This document shows positions 21,037-47,220 of a stretch of 64,000 nucleotides of DNA, piece by piece (positions within the stretch are counted from its first letter, which is position 1; every line of letters begins with the position of its first letter). The notes beneath the pieces were generated by a model. The model saw only the letters and a program-made list of their open reading frames with translations. It did no database searches and was not told the DNA's origin. The stretch comes from Vulcanimicrobiota bacterium (GTDB lineage Bacteria > Vulcanimicrobiota > Xenobia > Xenobiales > JADMJV01), in contig JAHBVR010000005.1 of NCBI GenBank assembly GCA_019637395.1, positions 65,312-129,311 on the forward strand. Reading direction: 5' to 3'. Both the position numbers and the translations under genes were made by a program.

Positions 21037-21163
21037 TTGGATTCCTTTCGGTTGCTCCCGAGGCAGCACGAAGCCAGACCCGGTGCGAATGAGATTTTTA
21101 GAACTAGAAAATGGGTCTACAAGGAGTCGGGGAGCTCAGGGGGGCTCCCGGCTACTTTCGGGC

Positions 21164-22426: not shown

Positions 22427-23101
22427 CTACCATCGGCTTCTATACCCCCTTACATCTACATGACAAAATCCGTCCAGCGGATAGAAACCAACGCCACCGT
22501 GGTCCCCAATCACCGCCTCACAAACCTTAAGCAGGGCTTCGGTGGAAATACCCGCTGCCTGAATGTCGGCCGCCAGCCCGTCGATATGAGTACTGTTGCT
22601 TGCCGCACCTTTTAGTGAGGCGTTATAGGCCGGCGGTCTATAAGCCGAGTTTATCGTGATCGGCGCACCACCCAGTTGGGTGCGGATCATCTCCAGTCGC
22701 CGCACCAACTCCGGCGACACACGCAAGAATGCGTAGGAGCTGTCGTGACACATGAATTCCCCCGCCGTGAAGTGTTCGCTGAGCCGGTCCGATGGTTTCG
22801 CCGCCAGCAGCGGCGCGGCCGTGTAGGCGCCGGTGGTGCCATACCGAGCCGCTTCGGCCTCGGACAGCACTGCTTTGGGAATCGACAGGCCGCTGGGGTA
22901 TTTCACTCCTTCGCCGGCGCCGGAAGCTCCCGGCCTGGGACCCTCGGGGAGACCCAGGAAGAACTTCTGCCGCGCGTCGTCTCGCCCGACACGCAGACCC
23001 AACTGTTCGGCCACCGTCATCAGCAACGGCAGTTGGGATTCTTCAATCTCGATCGGGCGCCGCCAATCTTCCGGGGGCGCAAACACTCGCCACTTATTCA
23101 T
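22427..23101 (-). CDS. peptidase M15-family (D-Ala-D-Ala carboxypeptidase / endolysin-like) protein
   Basis: SNSTHIDGLAADI and FCHVDVRG motifs (HxxxxxxD ... H zinc site), preceded by HFTAGEF. Confidence 0.7.
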   Translation of the reverse strand: MNKWRVFAPPEDWRRPIEIEESQLPLLMTVAEQLGLRVGRDDARQKFFLGLPEGPRPGASGAGEGVKYPSGLSIPKAVLSEAEAARYGTTGAYTAAPLLAAKPSDRLSEHFTAGEFMCHDSSYAFLRVSPELVRRLEMIRTQLGGAPITINSAYRPPAYNASLKGAASNSTHIDGLAADIQAAGISTEALLKVCEAVIGDHGGVGFYPLDGFCHVDVRGYRSRW

Positions 23102-30625: not shown

Positions 30626-33052
30626 CTAGGGGTTATGGATGATGGTCGGGGCGCTGGTCCTGCCCACCAGCCGGCCGTTCACGAAGGCTTCCACTTCAAA
30701 GCGGTAGTCACCGGCTTTTTCCGGGAAGGGATAGGGATCCAGAGTCAGTTCGCGCAGTTCGCCGGGCGCCAGGCGGGTTCGGGGTAGAATCATCTCCTCC
30801 ACCGTTTTATCCGGCCGGGTGACCAGCATATGGAGTTCCACTTCGGCCTCCAGCTTGCTGTCCTGATTTTTTATGGCTATGCGGCCCTGGCGCAGGCGAT
30901 CGGTATTGGTGGGCGGGGCCATCTTCAAGGGTTCCATCATCAGGAACGGCTGCGGATCTTGAGGATTGGCCGCATAGGGGTCGCTGACCGCCTGCGGGCC
31001 CGGTTCGGTTTCGCGGGGTTCCCATTGGGCCTGGCTGGGCAGTGGCTCTTTGCTCAGAAATTGGGCGTAGGCGGCGTCGATCCGGTTGATATCTTCGGGT
31101 CCGCTGACCACGTAGGGGGTCAGGGCGATGAAGAGCGAGGTTTTTTTCTGCTCGTTGCGCAGTTCCCGGAACAAATTTTGTATCAAGGGAATGTCGCCCA
31201 GGATGGGTACCTTGCGGATGGTCTCGGTGGTGCGCCGGCTGATCAGGCCGCCGATGAGCAGAGTCTCGCCGTCCTTGAGGTTGACGTCGGTCTTGACGCG
31301 CCGGTTGGAAATCAACGGAATGACGTAACCGAAGCCGCCCAGGTTCTGGTTGAGGAATTCGGTGACTTCCTGGACTTCTTGTTCGAGTTCCAGGCGAATG
31401 GTCGAGCCCTGCGAGATATGCGGAGTGAAGGACAGATTGATGCCTACATCCTTGTAGTCGTAAGTGACCAGCGGCTGTCCGGTTTGCGAGAAGCGAGCGC
31501 CGGTGGCGAAGGGCACGACGTTGCCCACCTTCATTTCCGCTTTCTTGTGATCGGTGGCCACCAGGCGGGGCGAGGAGATCAGTTCGAAGTTGGTATTGGC
31601 CCGCTCACCGGTCAGAAAGCCGAAGAGGCTGGGAACCTGCACATCGCGCCCCCCCACGTTGACGGTCCGCGAACTGCCCCCGCTGGCGCCCACCAGGAAT
31701 TGCCCGGAGGTCAGGAAGGAGAGCAGTCCTTCCTCGCTGGCGCCGCCGTTAAAGCTGGCCACCGGTCCGCTGGTGTCGAAGAGTTGAAGTTTGGAGCCGG
31801 CGTTGAGCAGGTCGGTGAGACTGACCTCGGCCACCACCGCATGCACCAGGATCTGCTTGCGCTTGCGGTCCAGACTGGCCAGCAGGGAGCGAATACTCGG
31901 ATACTCGCTGGGACTGATATAGACGAGCACGGCGTTCAGTTCCGGGTCGGCGCCCACCCGCGCCCCTACGTAGACCAATTGGGCCGGGGAGCCCGGGGTG
32001 GAGCCGGTCACCGGCGTAGGAATCGGGGTCGTGGCCAGGCCGCCGGGAGTCGATGGGGGAGGGGTGTTGGCGGTGCCGACGGCGGTGGTATTGGCGTTGC
32101 CCGTGCTTGAACCGGCCGCCTGGCGGCCGCGCCGGCTTTCCTCTTCGTCCTGCGCGCGCTTGCGTTCCGTCAGCAGTTCCTGCACGATTTTGGCCACGTC
32201 CTCGGCCTTGCCTTGCTGCAATTTGTAGACGAAATAGCGGGGTTTTTCCACTGTCAGCGGAGCCGAGCGGGCCACGTCCAGAGAGGCTACCGTTTCGCGA
32301 ATCTCCTTCATTTGGGCGGGCGTGGCCTGCACCAGCAGAGCATTGGTGGGCGGGAAAGCCGTTACCAGGGGTTGGGAAGTTCCTGGCAAAGCCTGCGTCC
32401 GCTGCATCACGCTCTGCAGCACGGGAGCCATTTTTTCGGCCTCGGCGTATTGCAGGAAGATCGTTTCCATGCTGATCTTGGGCGTGGCCCGGTCGAGGGA
32501 GCGCACCAGCGCCGCCACTTGGCGCAGAACTTCGGGGGTATCCACCAGGACCAGCGCCTTGCCCAGAGCGTAAACCTGAGCGCCATTGGGATCGCTGATG
32601 TAGGGGCGAATGGCCGTCAGAACCTGGCTGGCATCGCCTTCTCGTAAGATGACGGCCATGCTGGAATTGCGGGAATCACGGCGCACATCGGCCAGCGGCA
32701 TGACCTGGTAAATTCCGCCGGACTGGCGCAGAGCGAAGCCGTTCTTGCTGAGCACGCCCTGGAAAACTTGCCACAGCTCTTCGGAGGTCAGTTGGGAGCT
32801 GGCCAGCAGCGTTACCTTGCCGGTTACACCCTCGTCCAGCACCACCGTGCGCCCCGTCAGTTCGGAGACAATGCGGGCCAGCACGCGGATATCCAGATTC
32901 TCATAATTCATGGAAATGGGACCGCGGCGCAGGGCGCGCTGAGCGTCCTGCTTGATCAGCGGTCCCCCGGGCTGGGGCGGGCTCTGGGGCGGTTGAGCCC
33001 AGACCAGAGTGCTGGCCAGGCCGCTCACCAGTAGACAAGTTTTCAATTTCAC
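30626..33052 (-). CDS. secretin (GspD/PilQ-type outer-membrane channel) with a ~150-aa C-terminal extension
   Basis: Signal peptide, N0/N-domains, and the secretin core (VPILGDIPLIQNLF...TSLFIALTPYVV). No other T2SS or T4P genes are adjacent. Confidence 0.8.
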   Translation of the reverse strand: MKLKTCLLVSGLASTLVWAQPPQSPPQPGGPLIKQDAQRALRRGPISMNYENLDIRVLARIVSELTGRTVVLDEGVTGKVTLLASSQLTSEELWQVFQGVLSKNGFALRQSGGIYQVMPLADVRRDSRNSSMAVILREGDASQVLTAIRPYISDPNGAQVYALGKALVLVDTPEVLRQVAALVRSLDRATPKISMETIFLQYAEAEKMAPVLQSVMQRTQALPGTSQPLVTAFPPTNALLVQATPAQMKEIRETVASLDVARSAPLTVEKPRYFVYKLQQGKAEDVAKIVQELLTERKRAQDEEESRRGRQAAGSSTGNANTTAVGTANTPPPSTPGGLATTPIPTPVTGSTPGSPAQLVYVGARVGADPELNAVLVYISPSEYPSIRSLLASLDRKRKQILVHAVVAEVSLTDLLNAGSKLQLFDTSGPVASFNGGASEEGLLSFLTSGQFLVGASGGSSRTVNVGGRDVQVPSLFGFLTGERANTNFELISSPRLVATDHKKAEMKVGNVVPFATGARFSQTGQPLVTYDYKDVGINLSFTPHISQGSTIRLELEQEVQEVTEFLNQNLGGFGYVIPLISNRRVKTDVNLKDGETLLIGGLISRRTTETIRKVPILGDIPLIQNLFRELRNEQKKTSLFIALTPYVVSGPEDINRIDAAYAQFLSKEPLPSQAQWEPRETEPGPQAVSDPYAANPQDPQPFLMMEPLKMAPPTNTDRLRQGRIAIKNQDSKLEAEVELHMLVTRPDKTVEEMILPRTRLAPGELRELTLDPYPFPEKAGDYRFEVEAFVNGRLVGRTSAPTIIHNP

Positions 33053-33131: not shown

Positions 33132-34712
33132 GTGGAGAGCGGTCGGCTGCGGCAAATAGGGCCCTATCGTTTAGTGCGCAAGCTAGGTCAGGGCGGCATG
33201 AGCAGTGTTTTTCTGGCCGAAGACGAGCAAGGCCGGTCCTTTGCTTTAAAATTACTCAATTTGAGCCTCGAGAGCGAGCCGGAGTTTCGCAAACGTTTCC
33301 AGCGTGAAGCTGAACTCACTCAACGCCTGAGCCATCCCAATATCGTCAAAACGCTGACCTGGCAGGACGATCCGGACGTGGGCGTCTACCTGGTGATGGA
33401 ATACGTGGCCGGCGGCAACCTGCGTGTGCATCTGGAGGAAAATAGCCAGTTGTGGACGGTGGAACACTGCGTGCGTTTGTTTGCGCCGGTGGCCGCGGCC
33501 CTGGACTACGCGCACGCCGAAAAGGTCGTGCACCGCGATCTCAAGCCGGAGAATCTGCTGTTCGAAGGCAGCGATTGCTTGAAAATCGCCGACTTTGGAG
33601 TGGCCCGGGTGGAACATGGCAGCCGTCTGACGCGCACCGGCGTCCTGCCGGGCACCCCGGAGTATATGGCTCCCGAGCAGTTTTCCGATCAAGTGGCCGG
33701 ACCCGCAGCCGATGTCTACAGTCTGGCCACTATCCTTTACGAGTGCCTGGTGGGCGCCACCCCCTTTCGCTCGGAAAATCTGGCCCAGGTCCTGCAGCGC
33801 CAGGCCTTCGACAAGCCACAGCCGCCTACTCAGCGCCGCGAGGAACTTCCTTACTATGTGGATCGGGTCTTGCTCAAGGCCTTGGAAAAGCAGCCCGAGC
33901 AGCGCTATGCCAGCGCCGGGCAACTGCTGGACGCGCTGGCCACTCCCCCGGCCAGCCTGCCTTCCCGTCCAAGCCGTCCCGACGCCATCAGCGAACTCCC
34001 GACCCGATATGTCAGCTACAAGCCGGGCGCCGCGGCGCCGCGTGGGAAATCCTTGCCCTGGGGCCTGGTCTGGCTGATTTGGACGCTGGCCGGAATCGCC
34101 TGGTGCTGGCGCAGCCTGCCGCCCCCTATCCCGCCCGCCTGGCTGGATCAGGCTTTGGGTTGGCAACCGGCCCCTCTTGGCCGACAACTGTGCGCTTCGG
34201 TGGTCTGGTGCGGCATCGAGGTGGCGCTGTTGGAGCCCACTCAACAGCTTAAAGCCCTCGAGCGTGCCCGCTTCGCGGCCGGTCTCTGGGGCGATTGGAT
34301 CCATGGAGAGGGGCCCAAGAGCCTGCGCGGCGCCAAGGACGGTGACGACTACGCCATCTCGGTGGCGGAAGGAGAGTGGCTGCGCGTGGACGGCCAGATG
34401 GCCGCCAATTTGCGGGCTACCCCGGAACAGGTCGGGGAATACTGGTTGGCCCTGCTGGAGGATGTCCAGGCCATTCGCATGGGGAAGACTCCCAACCGGG
34501 TCAAGGACCTGGAGCGCCGCCGCCCCCTGCGTCTGGATGGCACTCCGCCGCGTTACCCCCTGCTGGACAGGCTCTATGATCGTTGTCGGATTCAAAGCCG
34601 CGAAGGCCAGATCGACGCGCAAGTGATGGCGGAGGCGTTGCGCTCGCTGGGCAACCCCGATATCCGGCGTCTGCGGGAGGCGGCCCGCTCGATTCCGCTG
34701 CCCAAACCGTGA
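33132..34712 (+). CDS. Hanks-type Ser/Thr protein kinase with a TM segment and C-terminal domain
   Basis: GQGGMSSVF...ALK, HRDLKPENLL, DFGVA, APE motifs. TM segment WGLVWLIWTLAGIAWCW. Confidence 0.85.
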   Translation: MESGRLRQIGPYRLVRKLGQGGMSSVFLAEDEQGRSFALKLLNLSLESEPEFRKRFQREAELTQRLSHPNIVKTLTWQDDPDVGVYLVMEYVAGGNLRVHLEENSQLWTVEHCVRLFAPVAAALDYAHAEKVVHRDLKPENLLFEGSDCLKIADFGVARVEHGSRLTRTGVLPGTPEYMAPEQFSDQVAGPAADVYSLATILYECLVGATPFRSENLAQVLQRQAFDKPQPPTQRREELPYYVDRVLLKALEKQPEQRYASAGQLLDALATPPASLPSRPSRPDAISELPTRYVSYKPGAAAPRGKSLPWGLVWLIWTLAGIAWCWRSLPPPIPPAWLDQALGWQPAPLGRQLCASVVWCGIEVALLEPTQQLKALERARFAAGLWGDWIHGEGPKSLRGAKDGDDYAISVAEGEWLRVDGQMAANLRATPEQVGEYWLALLEDVQAIRMGKTPNRVKDLERRRPLRLDGTPPRYPLLDRLYDRCRIQSREGQIDAQVMAEALRSLGNPDIRRLREAARSIPLPKP

Positions 34713-36637
34713 GCCTGATTCGTATCGGCCGGAACCCCGATTGTGATCTGGTGCTGGATAGCCCGCTGGTCAGCCGTTATCATGCCGAACTGGAGCTTAA
34801 CGGCAGCGGCGCCTGGTTGCGTGATCTGGACAGTGCCAACGGCACCTTCGTGGGCGGCCAGCGCGTCTCTCAGGCGCAGTTGCGTTCCGGCCAGGGTCTC
34901 TATCTGGCCAACGTCCATCTGCTTTTTGATGGCCAAAAGCTAAGTGAGGACGGCGCTCATAGCGCTGTGGGCATCGAGGTCGAGGACGTCAGCTTCCGCC
35001 CGCCCACGGCCAACCGGATGTTGCTCGACCACATTCGCTTCTCGGTGCGGCCCGGCCAGTTCGTGGCCCTGGTGGGAACCAGTGGGGCCGGAAAATCCAC
35101 CTTGATGAGTCTGCTGTTGGGACAACAGGCCCCCACGCAGGGAGCGGTGCTGATCAACGGACAATCGGCCTATGCCCATCAGGAGCAATTTCGCCATCTG
35201 ATCGGCTTCGTGCCTCAGGATGACATTGTCCACCGCGTGCTCCCGGTGGAGGCGGCTCTGGACTACGCCGCCCGCTTGCGCCTGCCGGCCGACACCAGTT
35301 TGGAAGAGCGGCAGCGGCGGGTGGAAATCGCCATGACCACCATGGAATTGGGGCACCGCCGCGAGGTGGCCATTTCACGCCTCAGCGGCGGCGAACGCAA
35401 ACGCGTGAGCATGGCCGCCGAGCTGCTGACGGAGCCCAGCCTGTTGTTTTTGGATGAACCGACCAGCGGTCTGGATCCGGGCATGGAGAAAAAGACCATG
35501 CAGCTACTGTCCCGGCTGTGCCGCCAGGGGCGCACGGTGGTTTTGATCACCCACGCCACTCAGAACATCGTTCTTTGCGATCAAGTCGCCCTGCTCGCGC
35601 CGGGAGGACGCCTGGTTTACTATGGCCCGCCCCGCGACGCCCTGGAATTTTTCGAGGTTCCCGACTTCGCGGAAATCTATTTGGAAATCGGCAGCCTGGA
35701 GAGCGGTTTGACCTGGCAGAAACGTTTTAATAAGCTACGACCCGAACCGGAAGGGCAGCCAGAGGCCGGGCCCGCCGGCCTGGGGCAGGCGGCCTCGCGT
35801 CTGCCCTGGGGGACTTCCTGGCGGCAGTGGTGGGTGCTGAGCCAGCGCTATAGCCATCAACTCTGGGCCGATCGCTCTAATTTAATGCTTATGGCCCTGC
35901 AGGCGCCGCTCATCGGGCTGGTGCTGTCCCTGCTCTTCGATCCGCATCTCTATGATTTGCGCCAGATCGCCGGTGAAAACAGCTATCCCATCAAGGAAGG
36001 GCCGACGCTGCTCTTCCTGCTGGTGGTCAGTTGCCTGTTTTTCGGCTCCATCAATTCTTGCCGCGAGATCGTCAAGGAACTGCCGATCCTGCGCCGGGAA
36101 CGGCTGGTGAATCTGCGCCTGCTTCCCTATTTTTTGTCCAAGGTGGCGGTGCTTTCCCTGGTCGGGGCCGTGCAGGCGATGGCCTTGCTGGCCATCGTGC
36201 AAATGCGCATACCTCTGGGCCTGAGCGCCGAATTGCAGATGATGCTGCTGGCTTTCCTGGTGGCGGCCGCGGTGGGCGGAACCCTGCTGGGGCTCATGCT
36301 CAGCTGCCTGGCCGGCTCGGCCGAACAAGCCTCCTCGCTGGTCTCCGTGCTTTTGATCCTGCAGCTGTCCCTGTCCGGAGCCTTTATCAAGCCGGAACAG
36401 ATGCTGCCGGCCTTACGCTGGATTTCCTGTCTGAGTATCTCGCGTTGGACCTTTGCCGGTGTGGGCTCGGTGGCCGGGCTGAACGCCCGCTTCATGGAAC
36501 TGCAGATGGGCTGGATCAGCAGCGATTTCTACCTGCCCATGCAGCCGCTCTGGGGTATCATCGCCCCGCTGCTGGGAATGCATGCGCTCATCGCCATCGC
36601 CGCCTTGCGCTGGCGCGAAGGACAATCCGAGCGATGA
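34709..36637 (+). CDS. FHA-domain ABC transporter (FHA + ABC ATPase + ABC-2 permease fusion; Rv1747-like)
   Basis: The GTG start overlaps the kinase stop. FHA domain (IRIGRNPDCDLVLDSPLVSRYHAEL). Walker A GTSGAGKST. Signature motif LSGGERKRV. C-terminal multi-TM region. Confidence 0.8.
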   Translation: MSLIRIGRNPDCDLVLDSPLVSRYHAELELNGSGAWLRDLDSANGTFVGGQRVSQAQLRSGQGLYLANVHLLFDGQKLSEDGAHSAVGIEVEDVSFRPPTANRMLLDHIRFSVRPGQFVALVGTSGAGKSTLMSLLLGQQAPTQGAVLINGQSAYAHQEQFRHLIGFVPQDDIVHRVLPVEAALDYAARLRLPADTSLEERQRRVEIAMTTMELGHRREVAISRLSGGERKRVSMAAELLTEPSLLFLDEPTSGLDPGMEKKTMQLLSRLCRQGRTVVLITHATQNIVLCDQVALLAPGGRLVYYGPPRDALEFFEVPDFAEIYLEIGSLESGLTWQKRFNKLRPEPEGQPEAGPAGLGQAASRLPWGTSWRQWWVLSQRYSHQLWADRSNLMLMALQAPLIGLVLSLLFDPHLYDLRQIAGENSYPIKEGPTLLFLLVVSCLFFGSINSCREIVKELPILRRERLVNLRLLPYFLSKVAVLSLVGAVQAMALLAIVQMRIPLGLSAELQMMLLAFLVAAAVGGTLLGLMLSCLAGSAEQASSLVSVLLILQLSLSGAFIKPEQMLPALRWISCLSISRWTFAGVGSVAGLNARFMELQMGWISSDFYLPMQPLWGIIAPLLGMHALIAIAALRWREGQSER

Positions 36638-38238
36638 AGCGGCCCCTGCTCTGGTTGCTGCTGGTGGGCCTGGCCTGGGCTCAAACCCCGGAACGCAAGC
36701 TGGTTTTTTTGCGCTCTCAAGGACTGAGTTCCTGGGCCGAGAGCGATCCCGGTTTCGACTACACTTGCTACCTGCCCCGCCGCTACAGCCTGCGCGGACT
36801 GGAAGATTCCCTGATCAAGGCCAGCGCCAGTTCGGGCGGCTTACCCACTCGTCTGCTGGGAGTTTTTGTTGGTGACCAGGTCCAGGTGGCTCCGCTGAAT
36901 TTACGCCTGGAACCGCCGCTCTTGCCTCTGAGCCTGACCGTGCGCAATCCCTGGCGCGGAGTAGTGTTTCTGCGCAAGGAAGGTCAGGAGATGGCGGCGA
37001 CGCCGGGCCTCTGGCAGCCATGTGTGGCCGCCGGTGCCGGCGATGGCCTTTATCAAGTGACCGCCTGGAACGAAGGCGGTCACTTGCAACTGCAGGATTT
37101 GATCTCCTTGGGGCCGGCGCCGCCCCCCGCCCAACTCCAGGGGCCCCTGCGGGCCGTCGTCAGCGAAGGCTTTCTGGACCGCACTCTGAGACTTTATCGC
37201 CAGGCCCATCCGCAGTTTTTTCGCTTCTCGGAACCGGGTGGCCGGGCCGGCTTTGAACTTTCCTCGCTGGGCCTGACCACCATCCCCGGGCACCTGCGCG
37301 CCTACGCCTCGGTCAACGGCCAGATTCAGGGCTTGGGAAAACTGGTCGAGGGGGAATGGGAGGCGCCGCTCCAGTTGGAGTTACAGGGTGGCTACGCGCG
37401 GCTGAAGTTGGGGGTGCAGGGACAGAGTGTGCGCCTGGTCAAGCCCGTCTTCGCGGAAATGCCGCAGAGTTGGGCGGACCAGTTGAGCGCCATGGCCCAG
37501 CGCATCTTTTCTACTCCGCTGGCCGTGCCGGTGCCGGGGGCCTATTTGCAGCCTCTGCTGGCCAGCGGTCTGGTGACGCAGGCCGAGCTGGAACAACTGA
37601 AGATTACGCCAGCGGGCTGGGGCGATCGGCGCAGCGGCTGTCTGTTGCTCAGCAGCTCTCCGGCCGCCTCACCCCCCGAACAGCTGGCCCTGGCGGCCCC
37701 CGAGGGTTTTGTGCTGGGCCTGAGCAGCCAGGCGCTCAACCGGGGTATCGCTCAATCGCTGCGTCTGCCCATGCGAGTGGACCTGCCCGCCGACCGCGTG
37801 CCCTCGCCCCAGGTGCTGATCTTCAAAGTGCAGCTTAAACAACTGGAGCTCCAGCAACTGAACCTTCGCTACCAGGAGGGAGCCTTTCACTTCGACCCGT
37901 GTGTGCTGGCGGTGGCCTGGCAGATGGGCCCGCTCTCGGGGCTGGAGCCGGGCGCCCGGGTAGTGGGTAGTGCGCTGCCGGCTTTGCAAAACGGCCAACT
38001 GCAATTACGCATGAAGATCGACCAGCTGGACATTCTCAGCCCGCAGATCCTGCAACAGTCTCCCCAGGAGCAGCAGCGCCTGCGCCGGCAGATTCTGGAT
38101 GGGCTGCAGAAGACGCCGCTACCGCTGCCTTTTCCCACCCGGCTGAACACCGAAGTCCACCCCCAGGCGCAACTGCAAATCACCCGCCTCGATCCCCAGG
38201 CCGACGCCCTCTGGCTGGCCGGCCACTGGGACCGCTAG
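36634..38238 (+). CDS. secreted hypothetical protein (~534 aa)
   Basis: ATG overlaps the ABC transporter stop. Signal peptide MKRPLLWLLLVGLAWAQ. The longer ORF from 36031 overlaps the ABC gene and is rejected. Confidence 0.5.
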   Translation: MKRPLLWLLLVGLAWAQTPERKLVFLRSQGLSSWAESDPGFDYTCYLPRRYSLRGLEDSLIKASASSGGLPTRLLGVFVGDQVQVAPLNLRLEPPLLPLSLTVRNPWRGVVFLRKEGQEMAATPGLWQPCVAAGAGDGLYQVTAWNEGGHLQLQDLISLGPAPPPAQLQGPLRAVVSEGFLDRTLRLYRQAHPQFFRFSEPGGRAGFELSSLGLTTIPGHLRAYASVNGQIQGLGKLVEGEWEAPLQLELQGGYARLKLGVQGQSVRLVKPVFAEMPQSWADQLSAMAQRIFSTPLAVPVPGAYLQPLLASGLVTQAELEQLKITPAGWGDRRSGCLLLSSSPAASPPEQLALAAPEGFVLGLSSQALNRGIAQSLRLPMRVDLPADRVPSPQVLIFKVQLKQLELQQLNLRYQEGAFHFDPCVLAVAWQMGPLSGLEPGARVVGSALPALQNGQLQLRMKIDQLDILSPQILQQSPQEQQRLRRQILDGLQKTPLPLPFPTRLNTEVHPQAQLQITRLDPQADALWLAGHWDR

Positions 38239-38977: not shown

Positions 38978-39670
38978 GTGCAGTTTGACAGGATCTTGAG
39001 TCAATTCTCCGGGGAACTCCCGCTTTTCCCTCTGCCCAAGGTGGTGCTCTTTCCCGGTGCCCGCCTCCCTCTGCACATCTTCGAACCGCGCTATCGTCAG
39101 ATGATCAGCGATGCCGAAGAGAATGAGGGGCTGATCGGGATGGTCTGCCTGCGCGAGCGCCGCAGTAAATCGGACACAGGCAACAGCCCGGTGCACTCGG
39201 TGGCCTGCCTGAGCCAGATCCGCAACCTGCAGCGCCTGCCCGACGGCCGCTTTCTCATGCAGTTGCAGGGCATCCAGCGCGCCCGCATTCGCGAGGAGCT
39301 GGACGTGCCGAAGCCCTATCGCATCGCCCGGGTGGACCTTGTTCCTGACATCGTCAACCCGCTCGAGCCGACGCCCATCGAGAACCTTTTTGAGCGCGCT
39401 CTGGATTCTTTCAATCAAGTGTTGCGCAACCTGGCTGATTTACCCGGTTCGCTGGTCTCGATTCAGAAGGAGGCTCCGGCCGGGCTCTTATTGGATGTGC
39501 TTGCTTACTATCTGCCGGTGGATTCCCTGATCAAGCAGCGCCTGCTGGAAGAAAGCGAAGTGCACCAGCGCGCCCGTCTGCTCTCGCGCATCCTGGATGA
39601 GCTGGCGCAGGTGGTTCCCGACGACGACACCGTGCGCTTTCGTATCTTCCCTAAACCCAGTTGGAACTAA
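38978..39670 (+). CDS. Lon N-terminal (LON substrate-binding) domain protein
   Basis: LPLFPLPKVVLFPGARLPLHIFEPRYRQMI is typical of the Lon N-terminal domain. Confidence 0.6.
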   Translation: MQFDRILSQFSGELPLFPLPKVVLFPGARLPLHIFEPRYRQMISDAEENEGLIGMVCLRERRSKSDTGNSPVHSVACLSQIRNLQRLPDGRFLMQLQGIQRARIREELDVPKPYRIARVDLVPDIVNPLEPTPIENLFERALDSFNQVLRNLADLPGSLVSIQKEAPAGLLLDVLAYYLPVDSLIKQRLLEESEVHQRARLLSRILDELAQVVPDDDTVRFRIFPKPSWN

Positions 39671-40560
39671 GTGGCCCACTCCGACCACTTGAGGCGGCTG
39701 CCGCCCAGTCGCGCCTGACAATAGCGGTAGAAGCGGCTTAAAAAGAGGTGCCGTTCTTCAGAAAGACGCCGGTTGGCGCCGGTGGAGATCTCGTTCAGAT
39801 CCCAGCCCGGCCGGACCCCTTTCTGGCGGGCCAGAATGTCCTGGAGAGAGACCTTGTCAGCGTTCTGGAGCATGTCATACATGGCCAGGAAGGTGCTGGT
39901 CCGCCCCACCCCGGCGCGGCAATGAAAATGCACCCACTGCGGACGTTGTTCGAGGGCCTGTAGAAAGCGCTCGACCTCTTCGTCGCCAGGATGGAGATGA
40001 TCGGTGACGGTCAGGCGCAGGTAATCCTGGCCGGTGGAACGCACCAATTCCTCTTCGCTGCTCACCCGAGAGACGGGTAAGACTTCTCCTCCGGCGCGCT
40101 GGCCGCGATCATAATCTTCTTCGGTCAGCAGCTCGACTTCGGAGCGCTCGGCCAGCTCCTTGAGCTGTGCCCGCTCTGTGGCCAGCACCTGGTCGTGGCT
40201 CAAGCCCCGGTTGGCCCAATTGTGTTCGGCATTCCAGGTGAGAATGTGATCGCCTAAAAAACCATGGGATTCCTGGCGCAGATCCACCACCAGCACTTTC
40301 TGACTGGGAATCAGGGACAGGACTTCGGCAATCGTTTCGGGTCCGAATTGAGCGCTTCCCGACATGGGCAGCGCGGCCAGACCGGTGACGTTGCCCGCAT
40401 AGTGCTCGGCCATCATGGCCGCGCTCCGAAAATACAGCGGCGCTCCGACATCCTCGACCAGACAGGAAGGGTTTTGAGCCCACACCAGGCGGGCCAGACA
40501 AAGGAGCAGGAAGAGCTTGCGCACGCCTCTATATGGCCGTTCGCATGTAAATGTAAACAT
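39667..40560 (-). CDS. secreted protein tyrosine / dual-specificity phosphatase
   Basis: Signal peptide. HCRAGVGRTS is a CX5R P-loop. Confidence 0.7.
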   Translation of the reverse strand: MFTFTCERPYRGVRKLFLLLCLARLVWAQNPSCLVEDVGAPLYFRSAAMMAEHYAGNVTGLAALPMSGSAQFGPETIAEVLSLIPSQKVLVVDLRQESHGFLGDHILTWNAEHNWANRGLSHDQVLATERAQLKELAERSEVELLTEEDYDRGQRAGGEVLPVSRVSSEEELVRSTGQDYLRLTVTDHLHPGDEEVERFLQALEQRPQWVHFHCRAGVGRTSTFLAMYDMLQNADKVSLQDILARQKGVRPGWDLNEISTGANRRLSEERHLFLSRFYRYCQARLGGSRLKWSEWAT

Positions 40561-40636
40561 TTTGTGGCAGGCTTGTAACTATTTGAGCAGAACCTCCTCG
40601 TTAAGATGGACAGCGCATTGGCTCGGCAGGAACTCG

Positions 40637-41821
40637 GTGAATCCGCTTAATTCCTTTAACCTCTCGGAGAAGCTCAGCGGCGTTTCAGGGACAGCGAAAC
40701 TAACTTTCAAGGCGCCCGTTGTCCCGGTCCAGGATTTTCAGACCCAAGATGGTTTTGTGGCGAGTTCCGTGGCTACGCCGGCTCCGGCTTACGTGCCTGA
40801 AGTCACGCCGGGAACAGAAGTCTCCGTTGCTGCCCCTGCGCCTGAAGAGACCCGGCCATCCAATCCTCCCGCCCCGCCGTTGCTCGCCCCCACGCTCTTG
40901 GGCCAGGAGCAATTTCTGGCCGGGCAGTTTTTGATTCCAACCGATGTCTCGAGTAAGCCGGGTGACATCACCTACGCGCCTTTGGCGTTTGATCTGTCCA
41001 AGCCGCTAAGCGGAGTTCTGGCTATCCCGGAGATCGATTATATCGAGCAGCTCCAGCCGTTGAACACTCGTTATCCCGGGCTGACCGAGCGTCTCAAGGA
41101 AGCGGAGGCGCGCGCCTGGATTGTCAGCGTCACCAGTGCGGGGGCGGGAAAAGGACGTCATACCGACGAGGTGCTGAAGAATCCACCCTGGCCCACCAGC
41201 AGCTTTGGCTCCAGTCGCCAGAACATCAGGGAAAAAGCGCTGCAGTTGCAAGAGGCCAATCCCAAACTGTCTTCCAGCCGGGTCGAAGACTATGATTTTG
41301 AGCAGGCCAAAGATCGGGCCGAGGACTTGTTTGCCGAAATGGAGCAGATGTTTCCTGAATCGGAGTTCGCCGGCGCCAAATTTGCCACTCGCGCCAAGAC
41401 GCCGCAGAGCCTGGAGAAGAAGTTGGCCAAGCGCAACCAGGAAGGCGGGCCAGAATTTTCGCTGGCTCACCTGACCGACTCGGTCGGCGCCCGCCTCGAT
41501 TGCACCAGCTTGAAGATGATGGGCGAGGCGGCTCATAAGCTGGAGAAGCACTACGAAGGCAAAATCGTGGCCAAGGACGACTATGTCTCGCAACCGGGCG
41601 CCCTGGGCTACCGGGCGCTTCATTATATTGTAGACCTGGGTGACCGCATGGCCGAAATCCAACTTTCCACCCACGACCTGCGGGCCACCGACCTGGCCAC
41701 CCACGACACCCTTTACAAGCCGGAGTTTCCCATCGACGCGGAGACGGCTGAAAAGCTCAGCGGTTCGGCGGATCGCGTGATGGAAGCGGAAAGCTTCCGG
41801 TATCGGACGGGTTTCCGATGA
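40637..41821 (+). CDS. RelA/SpoT (RSH) nucleotide pyrophosphokinase-domain protein with a unique ~250-aa Pro/Ala-rich N-terminal region
   Basis: The C-terminal 150 aa carry synthetase motifs: RAKTPQSLEKKLAKR, DSVGARLD, GYRALHYIV, EIQLSTHDL, HDTLYK. The GTG at 40637 is preceded by AGGAA. The upstream TTG-initiated extension overlaps the divergent phosphatase gene. Confidence 0.65.
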   Translation: MNPLNSFNLSEKLSGVSGTAKLTFKAPVVPVQDFQTQDGFVASSVATPAPAYVPEVTPGTEVSVAAPAPEETRPSNPPAPPLLAPTLLGQEQFLAGQFLIPTDVSSKPGDITYAPLAFDLSKPLSGVLAIPEIDYIEQLQPLNTRYPGLTERLKEAEARAWIVSVTSAGAGKGRHTDEVLKNPPWPTSSFGSSRQNIREKALQLQEANPKLSSSRVEDYDFEQAKDRAEDLFAEMEQMFPESEFAGAKFATRAKTPQSLEKKLAKRNQEGGPEFSLAHLTDSVGARLDCTSLKMMGEAAHKLEKHYEGKIVAKDDYVSQPGALGYRALHYIVDLGDRMAEIQLSTHDLRATDLATHDTLYKPEFPIDAETAEKLSGSADRVMEAESFRYRTGFR

Positions 41822-42060
41822 TCACCGTCGTGGCCACCTACGATCGCCAGACCGGCGCCTGCGAAGTCCACCTGGCGCTTTCTTCAGCTCTGGACAAAGC
41901 AGAGCGGCGCTCGCTGGCCAATGCCAAGGTGGAGGAATTATCGCAGAAGCTCGACAGCGAGCGCTTTGAAGTGATTTACTCCGTGGCGCGCACCGTGGAT
42001 GACTTCGTCTCTACCGACGGGCGCTTCCAGACCGTCCGTTACGCTCCGGGGGTGCAATGA
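41818..42060 (+). CDS. small protein (80 aa), candidate antitoxin/immunity
   Basis: Its start overlaps the RSH gene stop (ATGA). Its N-terminus resembles that of the next small ORF. Confidence 0.4.
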   Translation: MITVVATYDRQTGACEVHLALSSALDKAERRSLANAKVEELSQKLDSERFEVIYSVARTVDDFVSTDGRFQTVRYAPGVQ

Positions 42061-42311
42061 TCAGCCTGGTGATCTCCGAAGACAAAGAGACTGGCGAACA
42101 GCGTATCGAGACGATGCTGGATTGGAAGAACTTTGCGGAGCCCGAAGACCGGCACGACCAGTTGGATGAAACCGTGAATCGCCTCCACGAACTGTATCAA
42201 GGCCAGAGATTTCTATATACCAGGCATGCGCAAAACTTGTTCACGTTTTTGCAAGAAAACCCGGCTCTGGGCCCTAACCAGGCTGTTGACGAAGTGAAAG
42301 GACCTCAGTAA
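42057..42311 (+). CDS. small protein (84 aa), possible paralog of the preceding gene
   Basis: Its start overlaps the previous stop. Shared MI(T/S)xVxxxDxxTG N-terminus. Confidence 0.4.
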   Translation: MISLVISEDKETGEQRIETMLDWKNFAEPEDRHDQLDETVNRLHELYQGQRFLYTRHAQNLFTFLQENPALGPNQAVDEVKGPQ

Positions 42312-43981
42312 TGCAGATCAATCCGTTCAAGTTCTTCACCTCCCCCAAGGTGGAGCCCACTTCGACAGCCACAACCACGCCGACGCCGAGCTTGCAGCAA
42401 CCGGTGGCCGCTCCTCTGGAACAGTTCACCCCCTCGGCCGCCCCGAAAACCGTGCCCGACCTTCCTCTGAAGACTGAGGCGCCGCCGCAACCCGTCGAGG
42501 CCAAGCTCCCCCCGGCCCCCCAGCTGAAGTCCGAACCCCCCGTCGAGAGCAAGTTGCCCGCCAAAGAAAGCTGGATGGACCAGGATTGGAACCTCGGGCC
42601 GGGTTCTAACGCTAAAGCCGAACCCCACGAGAGTCTCTGGAAGTATCCCACACCGCAGGCGCCGATAGAACACAAGAAGATGATGGTTGTGGACGACGAA
42701 GCCACCTATTTTGTGGGTGGAGGTGAGTCCAAAGGCGGCGAGGCCAAGAAATCGGAGTTGGATCCGCTCATGGCCAAGTTCACGGAGCTTAGCAAGAATC
42801 ATGGTCTGAAGAAAAGCTCGGATCATTTAGGGCTGGGAGTGGGCGCCATGGCCGGGGTCGTAGCGGGCATGGCCGGAATGGCGGGAATGGGCGGAATCGG
42901 TATGTTGGGTATGATGCCCTCCATGAACTCCTTTTTCAGTGGAGTTGGCTCTGCTGGAAAGTTCAATCAGGACATCCTGGCCCATGAAATCGGCCACGCT
43001 TCCCCTTCGCCCAACCCGAGCGGCTTCGGAGGAGGCATTACCAACTTCAGCCATCTTGCGGCCGAGCAGCAGAAGTTTTTGGAAGACCTGAAGAAGCTGG
43101 ACAAGGGAGCCCCTTCCTCGGCTCAGGGTAGTATCACCAACTTTAACCAGATGGCTCTCGAGCAGCAGACGGCCCTTCAGGATCTCGCCAAAGCTCAGGA
43201 AATAAAAAATACCGCCGCTGTTAGCGAGGCCAAGCCTGTGCCCACCTGCGGGGGCCTGACCCGGGCCCAGGTGATCCAAGGCGTCGACGCCAAGTTGGCA
43301 GCTCTTGGGAAGACGAGCGTCCGCTATTCGGTGGATGAGAAGATGTTTTCGTCGATGGACAAGCTGAATCTCGACCCGGTCGATTTCTTTACTGCCCGCG
43401 CCTGCTGGCAGGGAGTATCTACCAAGCGCCGCGCCGTTCTGGAAAAGGTCTTGGACCAGTTTCCGGAACTGCCCAAGGACCAGAAGAACTGGCAGGCGGC
43501 GGTGGCCTCGGCTGAGGCCAAGGGCACGAAGATTACCGACACGGATAAGGTCTTCATCCAGTATTTCATTGAAAATCGTAAGGCGATGAAGAGCCTGTTC
43601 CGGGCCACCCTGCCCAGCGGCTTCCAGGGAAATTCGGCGATCTGCTATCGCGGCCAATCGAACAGCTCGGAGTATGGCCCTCATTCCACCAAACCGTTGG
43701 GCTGTTACTCGATCGATCCGGAGATCTCCGAGAGCTGGGCGACAGGCGGTAACCTCAAGCAGTTCAAAGTGAAGCTGAGTGACGTCTGGTCAACTTACAC
43801 GGCCACACAGAACAACAATCGCTGCGAACGAGAACTGACCGTGTATTCCCGCGGTGGAATTCGCAGAGGTGAAAAAGTCAAGGATATACCTGCCGCCAAA
43901 CGCGAATTCCAGGCCAGCTACGCCGGCGATAAGCTGGCAAAGGATCTGGAAACTTCACAATATAATAAATCCGGTTGGTAA
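42311..43981 (+). CDS. Pro-rich, Met/Gly-repeat protein with an HExxH motif and a C-terminal domain of unknown function
   Basis: ATG overlaps the upstream TAA. The Pro/Thr-rich N-terminal third resembles that of the RSH protein. MAGMAGMGGIGMLGMM tract. LAHEIGHA motif. Confidence 0.5.
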   Translation: MQINPFKFFTSPKVEPTSTATTTPTPSLQQPVAAPLEQFTPSAAPKTVPDLPLKTEAPPQPVEAKLPPAPQLKSEPPVESKLPAKESWMDQDWNLGPGSNAKAEPHESLWKYPTPQAPIEHKKMMVVDDEATYFVGGGESKGGEAKKSELDPLMAKFTELSKNHGLKKSSDHLGLGVGAMAGVVAGMAGMAGMGGIGMLGMMPSMNSFFSGVGSAGKFNQDILAHEIGHASPSPNPSGFGGGITNFSHLAAEQQKFLEDLKKLDKGAPSSAQGSITNFNQMALEQQTALQDLAKAQEIKNTAAVSEAKPVPTCGGLTRAQVIQGVDAKLAALGKTSVRYSVDEKMFSSMDKLNLDPVDFFTARACWQGVSTKRRAVLEKVLDQFPELPKDQKNWQAAVASAEAKGTKITDTDKVFIQYFIENRKAMKSLFRATLPSGFQGNSAICYRGQSNSSEYGPHSTKPLGCYSIDPEISESWATGGNLKQFKVKLSDVWSTYTATQNNNRCERELTVYSRGGIRRGEKVKDIPAAKREFQASYAGDKLAKDLETSQYNKSGW

Positions 43982-44082: not shown

Positions 44083-46743
44083 ATGCGACTGTCGCTCTCC
44101 CGTGCCCTGGCCGGCCTGTCCACTCGCCACCCGAGGGCGGTGGTCCTGGCGGCCATGGCTTCGGCTCTTTTCTGCCTGCTGACGGCCCTGCAAGGTCTCA
44201 GTTTCACCGTCGAGCGCACCGACATGCTGGCTCCCAACCATCCCGTGCAGCGAAACTGGCGGGCTTACCGCCAGGAATTCGGCAATCTCTCGGACTATGT
44301 GGTGATGGTCAAAGGGGATCCCGAAAAGGCCAGATTGGCCGTCGAGGACCTGGGCCAGCGACTCAAGGCCGAACCACAGACTTTTAGCAACGTTCTCTAC
44401 CGATTTGACCTGCCCGATCTGCTCAAGTCGTCGCTCTACTATATCTCCTTGCCCAGCCTTCATGCTTTAGAAGAGCAGTTGGAGCGGGGGCATCAACTGC
44501 TGGCCCCGCTTTCGGCGCGCAACGGCCTGGAGGCCTTGCTGCGCAGCCTGGCTCGTCCCAGTTCGGCGCGCCAGGTGGCCGGCCGCCTGGGCCCCTCTCT
44601 GCCTATCATGAATAAAGTGCTGGAATCGCTGGTCGTCTGTCTGGAGAGTCGGGGCGAGTGGTCCGCGCCTTCGTTTTCGACCGAGATTACCTCCGATTTG
44701 CCTGACCTGCAGGAGCTGGGGATTAAACCGGGACAAAAAAGTTTTTATATGACCGTGGACGGCGGTCATGCTTATGTGCTGCTCCTCAGCGCCCGAGATT
44801 CTTCCGGCAACTACGCCACCAGTCTGTTCACCATCGCGCGCTTGCGCGCTCTGGCCGAGCAGGTCCGCCGCCAGCATTTTGACGTCGAGGTCATGGTCAG
44901 TGGCGAGCCGGTCATCAACGCCGATGAAACCCAGATGGCCTTGCGCGACGCGCTGCGCGCTTCGCTCTACGCCTTCGCGCTGGTGGGACTGCTGCTCATG
45001 GTGGTGTTCCGGGCCGTGCGCAAGCCGGCCGCCGTGATGCTTTCCATGCTGGTGGGAATTTGTTGGACCTCGGCCCTGGCCGCCTGGACTCTGGGCGAAA
45101 TCAACCTGCTCACGATTAACTATGTGACCATGTTGGTGGGCCTGGGCATGAGTTTCGGGATTCACATCCTCTACCGTTTCCAGCTGGAACGCTCCATCGG
45201 ATTGGAGCCCGCCCAGGCCATCCGCAGCACCCTGGGAATGGAACGAGGCAACTTCGTGGGCGCTCTCTCCACCGCTGTGGCCTTCTGGGCGCTTTATTTC
45301 ACATCATTTCGGGCCGCCGGCCAGCTGGGTCTGGTGACGGGCAGCGGCATGCTGCTCTGCTATCTATCCAATGTGACCACCCTGCCCTCGCTCTTGATGT
45401 TGCTGGACCAGGGACGCCAGGAGTTCTGCCCTCACTGGCGCTGGATGAGCCTTACCAATTCATGGATCCTGGCCCGCCGTAAGTGGGTTTTATTGGGCTC
45501 GCTGATCGTCAGTCTGTATAGCCTGAGCTGGGTGACGCGCATTCCCTTCGATTACAACCTGATGAATATCCAGGCAGACAATGCGCCGGCTCTCTCGGTG
45601 GAACGTTACCTGCAGCGCTATCAATTCTCCGCCCTCTACGGCGTGTTGATCGCCGACAATCTGGAGGAAGCGCGCCAATTGAGCCGTCGCCTCGAGATTC
45701 AACCTACCGTGGGGAGGGTCGCTTCGGTCACTTCTTTCGAGCCGCGTTCCGTCGAAGAGAAGCGACCGGTAGTGGAACGGCTGATCGAGTTGGGACAGGG
45801 TTTGGAGCTACCGAGCTTTCCGCCCATCCGCACTGGTGAGCAATTGGAAAACCTGTATGCCGCCTACCTGGCCGCCCGGCGCCAGACCAAGGTGGCCCTC
45901 AAAGTCTGGCGCACCAGTCCCCTCCGTCAGGAAGCTGATCGTTTCGAAGCCCTGCTCAATCGCCTGGATGCCGCGCTGGACGCGGACAATCCCGGACCGA
46001 TGCAGGACGCCATGAAGGCGTTCGAGCGTCACGAGATCGGTCAGGTGACTTTGGAGCTGGCGTTGCTGAAACAACAGAGCGGCCAGCCGCCCCAGGTCCT
46101 TCCCTCCTTGCCGCCCGCTCTGGTCAGCCGGGTGGTCTCACCGCGGGGGCGTATCAGCTTGCGAGTTTTTCCACGAGAGAATTGCTGGGAGCGCGACGCG
46201 CTGGGACGCTTCGTGAAGAACCTTCGGCACATCGACCGCAATGCCACCGGCTACGCGGTGCTTGTCTATTACTATCTGGAAGACATGCGCAAAGCCTACA
46301 TTCAGTCCGGCCGCAATGCGCTGGTGGTGATCTTCGTGCTGCTGATCTTTCACTTCCGCTCGCTGTCTACAGCCATGCTGGCTATGTTCCCCAAACTGCT
46401 GGGAGTGCTCTGGATGATCGGGGCCATGGGCTGGCTGGGAGTCGGCTTCAACCCCATCAATTTTCTGTCCTTACCGCTCACCTTGGGAATTGGTTTGATC
46501 TTCGGTCTGCACGTGCTGGAAGCTCGCCACCATTGCCTTTTTCGCGACAGCACCGGACCGGCCATCGTGCTCTCCGGACTGGCCACCATGATTGGCTTTG
46601 CCACCGTGCTGACGGCCGAGCATAAAGGAGTGGCCAGCTTCGGCCTGTTGATGGTGCTGGGGGTCGGTGCCAACCTGTTGAGCAGCGTAATCACCCTGCC
46701 CGCTCTGCTGAAGAGCGAGCCGGGCTTGCTGGAGCCGGAGTAA
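44083..46743 (+). CDS. MMPL/RND-superfamily exporter (HpnN-like; two 6-TM bundles with periplasmic domains)
   Basis: 886 aa. Topology and motifs are typical of MMPL/RND transporters. Confidence 0.75.
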   Translation: MRLSLSRALAGLSTRHPRAVVLAAMASALFCLLTALQGLSFTVERTDMLAPNHPVQRNWRAYRQEFGNLSDYVVMVKGDPEKARLAVEDLGQRLKAEPQTFSNVLYRFDLPDLLKSSLYYISLPSLHALEEQLERGHQLLAPLSARNGLEALLRSLARPSSARQVAGRLGPSLPIMNKVLESLVVCLESRGEWSAPSFSTEITSDLPDLQELGIKPGQKSFYMTVDGGHAYVLLLSARDSSGNYATSLFTIARLRALAEQVRRQHFDVEVMVSGEPVINADETQMALRDALRASLYAFALVGLLLMVVFRAVRKPAAVMLSMLVGICWTSALAAWTLGEINLLTINYVTMLVGLGMSFGIHILYRFQLERSIGLEPAQAIRSTLGMERGNFVGALSTAVAFWALYFTSFRAAGQLGLVTGSGMLLCYLSNVTTLPSLLMLLDQGRQEFCPHWRWMSLTNSWILARRKWVLLGSLIVSLYSLSWVTRIPFDYNLMNIQADNAPALSVERYLQRYQFSALYGVLIADNLEEARQLSRRLEIQPTVGRVASVTSFEPRSVEEKRPVVERLIELGQGLELPSFPPIRTGEQLENLYAAYLAARRQTKVALKVWRTSPLRQEADRFEALLNRLDAALDADNPGPMQDAMKAFERHEIGQVTLELALLKQQSGQPPQVLPSLPPALVSRVVSPRGRISLRVFPRENCWERDALGRFVKNLRHIDRNATGYAVLVYYYLEDMRKAYIQSGRNALVVIFVLLIFHFRSLSTAMLAMFPKLLGVLWMIGAMGWLGVGFNPINFLSLPLTLGIGLIFGLHVLEARHHCLFRDSTGPAIVLSGLATMIGFATVLTAEHKGVASFGLLMVLGVGANLLSSVITLPALLKSEPGLLEPE

Positions 46744-46749
46744 GTCTGC

Positions 46750-47220
46750 TTACTGCTGGGGTTTGGCGGCGGCCTTGAAGGCCATCAGGCCCCCCATCAG
46801 AGCGGCCGACACGCCCAGCGTGGCTGCCAGAACCGGGCTGCCGCTGCTGGTCAGAAAGGCCTGGGTGATGCCGGCGCCGGCCCCCAGCAGACCGCCCACG
46901 ATGCCCCCACCAATGGCCCGATATTCACTGCTGCTGGGGCCGAACTTCTCGGCGGCGATCCCGCCCAGGAGGGCGCCTCCCACGGCCAGGCCGGGAATCG
47001 AGCAGAGGGCCACGGCTTCGGCCACGAATCCGCCGTGCAGGCCGGCGGCCACGCCCAGGGCGGCTCCGCCGAGCACGCAACCACCGGCAATGGCTACTTT
47101 AGAGTAAGAGATATCCACCTGGTCCGGCTGATCCGGCTGGGGGGGAGTGCTCGGAATCTGAGGCTTGTTGTTCTGGGGAACTTTGTTCAGCGTGAACTGT
47201 GGGGCTGCGGTGACTTTCAT
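46750..47220 (-). CDS. glycine-zipper membrane protein
   Basis: GxxxG-rich hydrophobic repeats (GGALLGGIAA..., GGIVGGLLGAGAG). Confidence 0.4.
   Translation of the reverse strand: MKVTAAPQFTLNKVPQNNKPQIPSTPPQPDQPDQVDISYSKVAIAGGCVLGGAALGVAAGLHGGFVAEAVALCSIPGLAVGGALLGGIAAEKFGPSSSEYRAIGGGIVGGLLGAGAGITQAFLTSSGSPVLAATLGVSAALMGGLMAFKAAAKPQQ

Follow-up and report, generated by a model that had tools for sequence, protein, structure and literature searches.

The window analysed here, a stretch of 64,000 nucleotides from a Vulcanimicrobiota bacterium (Xenobia; Xenobiales; assembly GCA_019637395.1, contig JAHBVR010000005.1, positions 65,312–129,311 of the forward strand), carries on its plus strand an operon of four genes that most likely encodes two cognate toxin–antidote pairs, which often travel together. 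The first gene (40637–41821) encodes a protein of 394 amino acids with one RelA/SpoT-type (RSH) synthetase domain behind an N-terminal extension. The second (41818–42060) and third (42057–42311) encode small acidic proteins of 80 and 84 amino acids, s80 and s84, which are the putative antidotes, and the fourth (42311–43981) encodes g4, a putative second toxin of 556 amino acids. The reading that we favour, with rather more confidence than doubt, is that these are two toxin–immunity pairs, with both toxins guided by their leaders into one route of delivery.

The pairing emerges from a census in which hidden Markov models (HMMs) of the four families were compared with the six-frame open reading frames (ORFs) of the fetched loci, yielding 15 distinct loci, 13 with an RSH gene and nine with g4. 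The gene order RSH-s80-s84-g4 is found in the window and in two further loci (L004, L009), and the order s80-RSH-s84-g4 in another two (L014, L015). The pair RSH-s80 occurs by itself in four loci (L011, L012, L016, L020) and together with a second RSH fragment in L019, whilst L018 has s84-g4 and no RSH gene. Elsewhere RSH and g4 are joined directly by an ATGA (L013) or are convergent (L006, from TARA), or else RSH (L002) or g4 (L017) stands alone. Across the census s80 adjoins RSH, on either side, in 10 of the 13 RSH loci and is never found with g4 alone; s84 lies immediately 5′ of g4 in six of the nine g4 loci and is never found with RSH alone. As s80 tracks RSH and s84 tracks g4, also in L018 where there is no RSH gene, the operon comprises two cognate pairs, RSH:s80 and s84:g4. 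An earlier note on this DNA, made without database searches, had proposed both small genes as partners of the RSH protein; this holds for s80, but the census rules it out for s84. The note was correct that the genes overlap at their start and stop codons. The junctions are, in order, ATGA, ATGA and TAATG, and the four genes are therefore translationally coupled, an arrangement by which the synthesis of an antidote would keep pace with that of its toxin. The GC content by codon position is coding-like in all four, N-terminal extensions included.

The two small proteins are distant paralogs. Pairwise BLASTP of s80 against s84 gave no match, which had suggested that the genes were unrelated, but comparison of the family profiles with hhalign overturned this, aligning them end to end over 72 columns (97% probability, E 1.1e-10) and bearing out the suspicion of the earlier note. 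Orthologs of each are conserved in other genomes and related loci. When 1.84 billion cluster representatives were searched exhaustively by HMM, only about nine small-protein clusters came up, all of them s80- or s84-like. Both proteins are acidic (pI 5.3 for s80, 4.7 for s84), neither has a signal peptide, and members of the s80 family range from 73 to 86 amino acids. The AlphaFold model of s80 (pLDDT 90.9) has the order β1-β2-α1-β3-α2-β4, with a compact β1-β2-α1-β3 core plus extra β/α element that can be superposed on ATfaRel2 or the pseudo-Zn-finger domain (pZFD) of CapRel, and the modelled fold is of this ATfaRel2/pZFD type. A sequence search with s80 and s84 revealed no similarity to ATfaRel2 or to any PDB chain; ATfaRel2 and the CapRel pZFD likewise lack sequence similarity to one another (PMC11782079). 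In the FaRel2 complex, β3 of ATfaRel2 extends the sheet of the toxin, the ATP donor site is plugged by a YXXY 3-10 helix that directly follows this strand, and the antitoxin tyrosines stack on R64 and R95 of FaRel2 (PMC11782079). The equivalents of these two arginines are kept in the gene 1 family as R252 and R286, and the best-conserved stretch of s80 is β3 with the ARSLDEFxxTDxRF that follows it. By analogy, s80 may act as a small cytoplasmic protein that binds the synthetase by β-sheet extension and blocks its ATP donor site with this stretch. Its paralog s84 would have diverged and been re-specified for g4, of which hhalign and the census make it the putative antidote.

Gene 1 encodes a bona fide RelA/SpoT synthetase domain of the small alarmone synthetase (SAS) type. 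Pfam PF04607 (RelA_SpoT) matches residues 251–361 of 394 with an E value of 1.4e-12 and a score of 48.3 bits, where the cut-off is 27. Across 18 aligned homologs there is no variation in residues R252, K254, S258, K262, D281, G284, R286, Y325, R326, H329, E340, Q342, H356, Y360 and K361, in agreement with the earlier note, which had recognised all five synthetase motifs. We designate R252, K254, D281, R286, Y325, E340, H356 and K361 as the catalytic residues. Pfam and NCBIfam detect no HD hydrolase, TGS or ACT domain. In the family alignment the protein falls into three parts: a variable, proline-rich, acidic leader of about 130 residues (1–130; 40637–41026), a conserved, family-specific stretch of about 115 residues (131–245; 41027–41371; pI 4.75) with RYPG, NPPWP and DYDF motifs, and the synthetase domain (41372–41821). 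The N-terminus of some 250 residues that had been described as unique is thus so only in its first part, the second being conserved across the family. A search of 5.8 billion proteins recovered only 19 relatives, of 295–426 amino acids and one common architecture. In genome and metagenome scans the family was confined to assemblies of Eremiobacterota, Vulcanimicrobiota or Xenobiales and to unclassified metagenome contigs, one of them from TARA Oceans, with at most three copies per genome. A phage origin of the RSH gene and g4 was rejected, as neither has relatives among the IMG/VR viral contigs. The protein is predicted to be an active pyrophosphokinase; it would transfer pyrophosphate from ATP to the 3′-OH of either a purine nucleotide or the CCA end of tRNA. 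In L019, the ORF directly after the RSH-s80 pair (5499–6011, +) encodes 170 amino acids of RSH domain only (family HMM, E 1.5e-46) and is a tandem duplicate or fragment.

The conserved part of g4 is its C-terminal portion of about 240 amino acids (approximately residues 318–550; 43262–43960), in which a helical subdomain precedes what is probably an R-S-ExE ADP-ribosyltransferase (ART)-like core. Residues R447 (in CYRGQ; 43649–43651), S467 (in GCYS; 43709–43711) and the pair E506-x-E508 (in ERELTV; 43826–43828 and 43832–43834) are invariant among 10 proteins, save that the serine is a threonine in the marine copy. In the predicted structure of this domain (pLDDT 77, pTM 0.74; model numbering), the arginine lies on a strand (147–154), the serine at the end of a strand (168–172) that is followed by a helix (175–179), and the ExE after a low-confidence loop (203–209) at the start of a further strand (213–217), a layout that we take to be the standard one of R-S-ExE ADP-ribosyltransferases. 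Foldseek ranked the ART domain of ExoS first and second among PDB structures (probability 0.95 and 0.80), followed by ART2.2 and PARPs, with low structural scores. No ART family match was found in Pfam (E≤10, all 10 members), NCBIfam or PDB sequences. The earlier note had described g4 as an HExxH protein. The HEIGH motif (residues 225–229; 42983–42997) lies inside an insertion present in the window protein alone and is probably non-functional; HExxH is missing from eight of nine homologs, and the HELGH of one homolog is at another position. A role as an HExxH protease was therefore ruled out, since the motif is not conserved and no peptidase profile matches the family, with Pfam Reprolysin below threshold and DUF4157 absent from every member. 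Between the variable proline-rich leader of g4 (residues 1–172; 42311–42826) and the rest of the protein is a Gly/Met/Ala-rich, hydrophobic, glycine-zipper-like segment (residues 173–205; 42827–42925; LGLGVGAMAGVVAGMAGMAGMGGIGMLGMM), which scores 1.71 over 19 amino acids on the Kyte-Doolittle scale and has counterparts in 8 of 11 family members. Elsewhere in the window, the ORF at 46750–47220 (−) encodes 156 amino acids, in which a proline-rich N-terminus (MKVTAAPQFTLNKVPQNNKPQIPSTPPQPDQPDQ) gives way to an extended hydrophobic stretch rich in Gly and Ala; it resembles the middle of g4 in flavour and has no family match.

Both putative toxin families open with variable proline-rich sequence, containing 11–18% proline in nearly all members, so that the likeness between the N-termini of gene 1 and g4 remarked on in the earlier note extends to their families. 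The first residues are often of the form M-x-I-N or M-L-x-P-F-N. In the RSH protein, residues 1–130 are acidic and about 15% proline, and are predicted from composition alone to be disordered; there is no hydrophobic segment anywhere in the protein. A short sequence of the form [DE]-x-[VL]-x-[LI]-x-[STA], such as DQVSLQS, DGVTLSA or EQVQLGA, recurs as a motif 31–50 residues from the annotated N-terminus. It is present in 10 of 19 RSH and 5 of 10 g4 proteins, compared with 0.04 and 0.02 expected from composition-preserving shuffles, figures that overstate its significance because the regular expression was defined post hoc on related sequences. Among the 832 ORFs of at least 100 amino acids in all loci, the motif and a proline-rich N-terminus are combined in RSH and g4 ORFs only. 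A leader motif common to two unrelated enzyme families suggests a shared delivery route: the disordered leaders, with their β-strand-like D/E-x-V-x-L-x-S/A motif, would hand both enzymes to one export or delivery pathway, the enzymes would act on other cells, and the antidotes would confer immunity. There is an established precedent in the exported alarmone synthetases (EAS), RSH toxins whose N-terminal export domains are modular (PMC12691689). None of the six export modules recognised in EAS proteins (Sec signal, WXG/LXG, XopAD, MuF, DUF4157, Rhs/PAAR) was detected N-terminal to the RSH domain here, where Pfam gave no hit at E≤10, and there is no hydrophobic h-region. An FlgM-like flagellar export signal was rejected, being a weak lead at most, as hhalign comparison with FlgM sequences was not significant (P 0.03 and 0.5). 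The motif may also resemble a TonB box. Proteins with no family name and with MxVxNF- or MALNGIN-type N-termini adjoin antidote-less loci (L013, 10295–10960, −, and 11120–11605, +; L006, 10806–11318, +), which hints that this style of leader may be more widespread in these genomes.

A number of observations weigh against the reading of two delivered toxin–immunity pairs. Searched against all PDB sequences at E≤10, the RSH family profile found no match to FaRel2, CapRel or Tas1, and the sequence-nearest solved RSH structures are those of the non-toxic RelP and RelQ. With a pI of 5.2 the RSH protein is acidic, which a typical tRNA binder is not. s80 does not have the YXXY motif through which ATfaRel2 and CapRel neutralise their toxins, but carries F63-V-S-T66 at that position, where the family consensus is FxxTDxRF and the first aromatic residue alone is kept. 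The copies of the leader motif in the window itself are degenerate (QDGFVASS in the RSH protein, LEQFTPSA in g4), and no known export domain was detected in the leaders by Pfam (E≤10) or by PDB profile search. The earlier note had seen no secretion system beside the operon, and none is consistently linked to it across the loci, type III, IV and VI systems (T3SS, T4SS and T6SS) included. Lastly, three RSH loci (L002, L006, L013) and three g4 loci (L006, L013, L017) have no antidote nearby, with catalytic residues intact, contrary to the statement in the earlier note that RSH toxins are always paired with a neutralising protein; a search for a hidden s80 or s84 relative in L006, L013 and L017 produced nothing convincing (best candidate E 0.03). 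Sec-type exported RSH toxins lack immunity genes (PMC12691689), and a toxin of this kind, needing none, would explain the antidote-less loci.

The first of these points raises the question of whether gene 1 might be an ordinary, non-toxic (p)ppGpp synthetase like RelP or RelQ, with the small proteins as regulators and g4 as an unrelated neighbour. RelP of S. aureus is indeed the best match of the family profile in the PDB (E 1.7e-12), with RelQ, RelA and Rel also found, and some loci have the RSH gene alone. The earlier note had held that a place among the housekeeping RelP and RelQ enzymes would tell against a toxin; these are the closest of the PDB sequences, but the identity of the RSH domain to RelP is only about 30% over some 90–140 residues, which does not amount to such a placement. 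The confinement of the family to one phylum at no more than three copies per genome, its consistent linkage to an antitoxin-fold protein and an ART-like gene, a leader foreign to RelP and RelQ, and the HD_4 hydrolase neighbour in L016 all argue in the same direction, and we regard a housekeeping role as highly improbable.

A more serious competitor, though still a doubtful one, keeps the same two pairs and places them wholly within the cell, as type II toxin–antitoxin (TA) or abortive infection systems like FaRel2-ATfaRel2 or CapRel, with the disordered N-termini serving for regulation, for the sensing of a trigger or to mark the protein for degradation. This would agree with the overlapping bicistronic gene architecture, with the want of a linked secretion apparatus and with the pZFD/ATfaRel2 fold, known so far from intracellular TA systems built on toxic SAS enzymes (toxSAS; PMC11782079). 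Furthermore, the RSH domain matches the PADLOC phage-defence candidate PDC-S33 (4.8e-10), and the operon is preceded by a palindrome, as autoregulated TA operons are. Known toxSAS and ART toxins of TA systems, however, have no proline-rich leaders of 130–300 amino acids, whereas here two unrelated enzymes share both the style and the motif. The glycine-zipper segment of g4 also fits poorly with an intracellular toxin, toxin genes with intact active sites and no antidote would be hard to tolerate, and the family does not occur in viral contigs.

The divergent neighbour of the operon (39667–40560, −) bears on a third possibility. The earlier note took it for a secreted tyrosine phosphatase, and it is a PTP-like phytase (Pfam PTPlike_phytase, 1.1e-21, 78 bits against a cut-off of 27) with the catalytic sequence HCRAGVGRTS, an intact CX5R(S/T) loop and an N-terminal Sec-type leader. 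Its match to NCBIfam XopH (3.2e-59, 201 bits against a cut-off of 500) makes it by sequence a XopH relative and not an equivalog. RSH and g4 could on this basis be anti-eukaryotic effectors delivered together with the XopH-like phosphatase, with s80 and s84 as secretion chaperones. ExoS and other R-S-ExE ARTs are classical effectors against eukaryotes, an ankyrin-repeat protein is encoded elsewhere in the window (4677–5375, +; a eukaryote-like repeat type frequent in effectors), and the lack of a self target would account for the antidote-less loci. Rel-like domains occur in T3SS effectors of the XopAD type (PMC12691689), and the marine relative in L006 may come from a lineage suspected of predation (PMC9259500). 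On the other hand, the phosphatase comes with a Sec leader of its own, and it adjoins the operon in only 2 of the 15 loci, the window and L004, the latter having the five-gene block from phytase to g4 between entirely different flanking genes, so that it was ruled out as a core component. No T3SS, T4SS or T6SS genes are linked, the fold of s80 fits a toxin inhibitor and not a T3SS chaperone, and class I T3SS chaperones are larger than the members of the s80 family. The substrates of RSH enzymes, tRNA and bacterial purine metabolism, also suit bacterial targets, and we consider the effector explanation improbable.

Within the reading of two delivered toxin–immunity pairs, a more specific proposal can be made, which we put forward tentatively and think rather unlikely: that diderm Eremiobacterota release the RSH and ART-like enzymes as toxins of a new class, which would resemble bacteriocins or be guided by their leaders in some other way. 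The organism is taken to be diderm because the window encodes a GspD-like secretin (30626–33052, −). The proline-rich leader and its motif might then serve as a portable address for export, for energised uptake or for both, and the pZFD proteins as immunity proteins. Protein bacteriocins combine disordered N-terminal import signals and tight immunity proteins with the lack of a linked secretion system (PMC12927319). Colicins and pyocins join a disordered N-terminus, with a short import motif, to a C-terminal cytotoxic enzyme, next to a gene for a small acidic immunity protein. The families described here have a proline-rich leader, predicted to be disordered, with a short shared motif, a C-terminal enzyme domain and an adjacent small acidic protein; they have no recognisable receptor-binding or inner-membrane-translocation domain, and no lysis gene was seen.

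On the product of the RSH enzyme, alarmone or modified tRNA, the evidence points both ways and we make no call. According to a published rule, toxSAS toxins that are neutralised by a pZFD pyrophosphorylate tRNA, and a partner with the pZFD fold therefore suggests a tRNA target. A nucleotide alarmone is suggested instead by the lack of YXXY, by the acidity of the protein, by its likeness to RelP and by a small alarmone hydrolase (SAH) neighbour. This neighbour is an HD_4 (SAH-like) gene in L016 (7204–7908, −) with an intact LLHDVLEDT, divergent from the RSH-s80 pair, and it is possible, by analogy with the FaRel operon, that it supplies a third, enzymatic antidote.

The combination of a SAS gene with an overlapping small partner gene (s80 in 10 of 13 RSH loci, with ATGA in the window) is that of toxSAS TA modules. 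By PDB profile search, gene 1 is not placed in any of the validated toxic subfamilies (FaRel, FaRel2, PhRel, PhRel2 and CapRel). Compared with FaRel2-ATfaRel2 of Coprobacillus sp. D7, a type II toxSAS system, and with the fused CapRel, the proteins described here have no detectable sequence similarity to FaRel2, CapRel or ATfaRel2 and carry FxxT in place of YXXY; the toxin has an N-terminal extension of 245 residues, of which 130 are proline-rich and predicted to be disordered, and the antidote gene may precede or follow that of the toxin, or be absent from its vicinity. The three-gene operon of Cellulomonas marina, in which FaRel is encoded between the SAH ATfaRel and AT2faRel (PMC7229694), is likewise multi-gene with more than one protective gene, a likeness that extends to L016 with its RSH, HD_4 and s80 genes; in the window, by contrast, the second small protein goes with g4 and not with RSH, and no Tis1-like domain was found. 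EAS proteins and Tas1/Apk1-Tis1 (PMC12691689) resemble the present system in having a C-terminal synthetase behind a modular N-terminus, with an immunity gene in some, and the Sec-type EAS without immunity genes parallel the antidote-less loci. They differ in that no export module is recognised here and the modelled antidote fold is that of ATfaRel2, not Tis1. With RelP and RelQ, gene 1 has in common its G-loop length as well as the GYR(S/A)LH motif, whereas the lysine of the RelP loop TPKPNGY is replaced (QPGALGY), and the extension and the linked antidote and ART-like genes set it further apart. Among R-S-ExE ARTs (ExoS/ExoT, C3, ART2, HopU1, and the Rhs-linked TreX and TreTu with Tri), g4 has no Pfam or PDB sequence match; it is distinguished by a putative protector that is a paralog of a toxSAS antitoxin and by the proline-rich leader and glycine zipper N-terminal to its domain.

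In kind, toxSAS enzymes that have structured antitoxins are already known, as are ART toxins that have immunity proteins. What is new is the lineage-restricted RSH family, the leader common to both putative toxin families, the YXXY-less putative antidote with a predicted ATfaRel2 fold, and the occurrence of its paralog with an ART-like putative toxin in one coupled operon; no accession of these families was found in searchable papers or in the supplementary lists of the EAS survey (PMC12691689). Toxic RSH enzymes (toxSAS, Tas1/Apk1, EAS) are a young field in which the choice of product, neutralisation and delivery are all at issue, and a YXXY-less partner of the ATfaRel2 fold puts the proposed rule linking neutraliser type to substrate to the test. 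The natural duplication, with one antidote fold apparently retargeted to an unrelated ART-like toxin, offers a clean system for studying the evolution of antidote specificity, and the disordered leader that two unrelated toxins share, in a phylum with few cultured members, may mark an uncatalogued delivery route. Should the bacteriocin-like proposal prove true, this would be the first such delivery module for an RSH pyrophosphokinase and the first toxSAS-antitoxin fold re-used against an ADP-ribosyltransferase; as a plain intracellular TA system, it would still extend the known diversity of toxSAS in a useful, if modest, way.

The start of gene 1 has been called in three ways, giving 394 amino acids (Logan, an independent gene call) or 354 and 313 amino acids (NCBI). 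The GTG at 40637 is the best supported of these because it has an AGGA 6 nt upstream, gives an N-terminus (MNPLN) resembling the MLPFN and MLTPFN of the closest homologs, and agrees with the 394-residue Logan call. The g4 and s80 proteins of the window are 100% identical to proteins from the metagenome-assembled genomes KF760 and KIS61, all labelled ‘hypothetical’. The palindrome 5′ of the operon (AAATGTAAACATTT; 40549–40562) is about 75 nt from the RSH start and occurs once in the window, compared with 0.1 occurrences expected by chance. It is part of a 37-nt block (40540–40576) conserved in the window, L004 and L009, the last of which has no phosphatase gene, and the block may act as the promoter or operator for these genes. 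A search for sigma-70 promoters and terminators gave nothing above chance.

Directly 3′ of the operon is a gene for an HpnN-like RND transporter of the hopanoid/sterol family (44083–46743, +), below the equivalog cut-off. An ORF of 735 amino acids at 36031–38238 has no family match; within it, at about position 37722, the KIS61 contig JAHCIS010000006.1 begins. The GspD-like secretin gene is followed by those for a Ser/Thr protein kinase (33132–34712, +) and an FHA-domain ABC transporter (34583–36637, +). Some 25 kb from the operon lies an Rhs toxin (10798–17451, −), a protein of 2217 amino acids with an N-terminal DUF6531 and a core that ends at PASLSDPTG, near residue 2002, after which a Gly/Pro linker leads into a C-terminal domain of about 200 amino acids without a family name. 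An ORF of about 120 amino acids just 3′ of the Rhs gene (about 10400–10790, −) is a possible immunity gene, and an IS21-type pair (IstB ATPase, 7307–8089, −; rve/Mu-transposase, 8200–9774, −) is situated immediately 3′ of the Rhs locus. A phage tail-collar protein with collagen repeats (19951–21069, −) and an M15 peptidase (22427–23101, −) may be the remnant of a prophage or tailocin.

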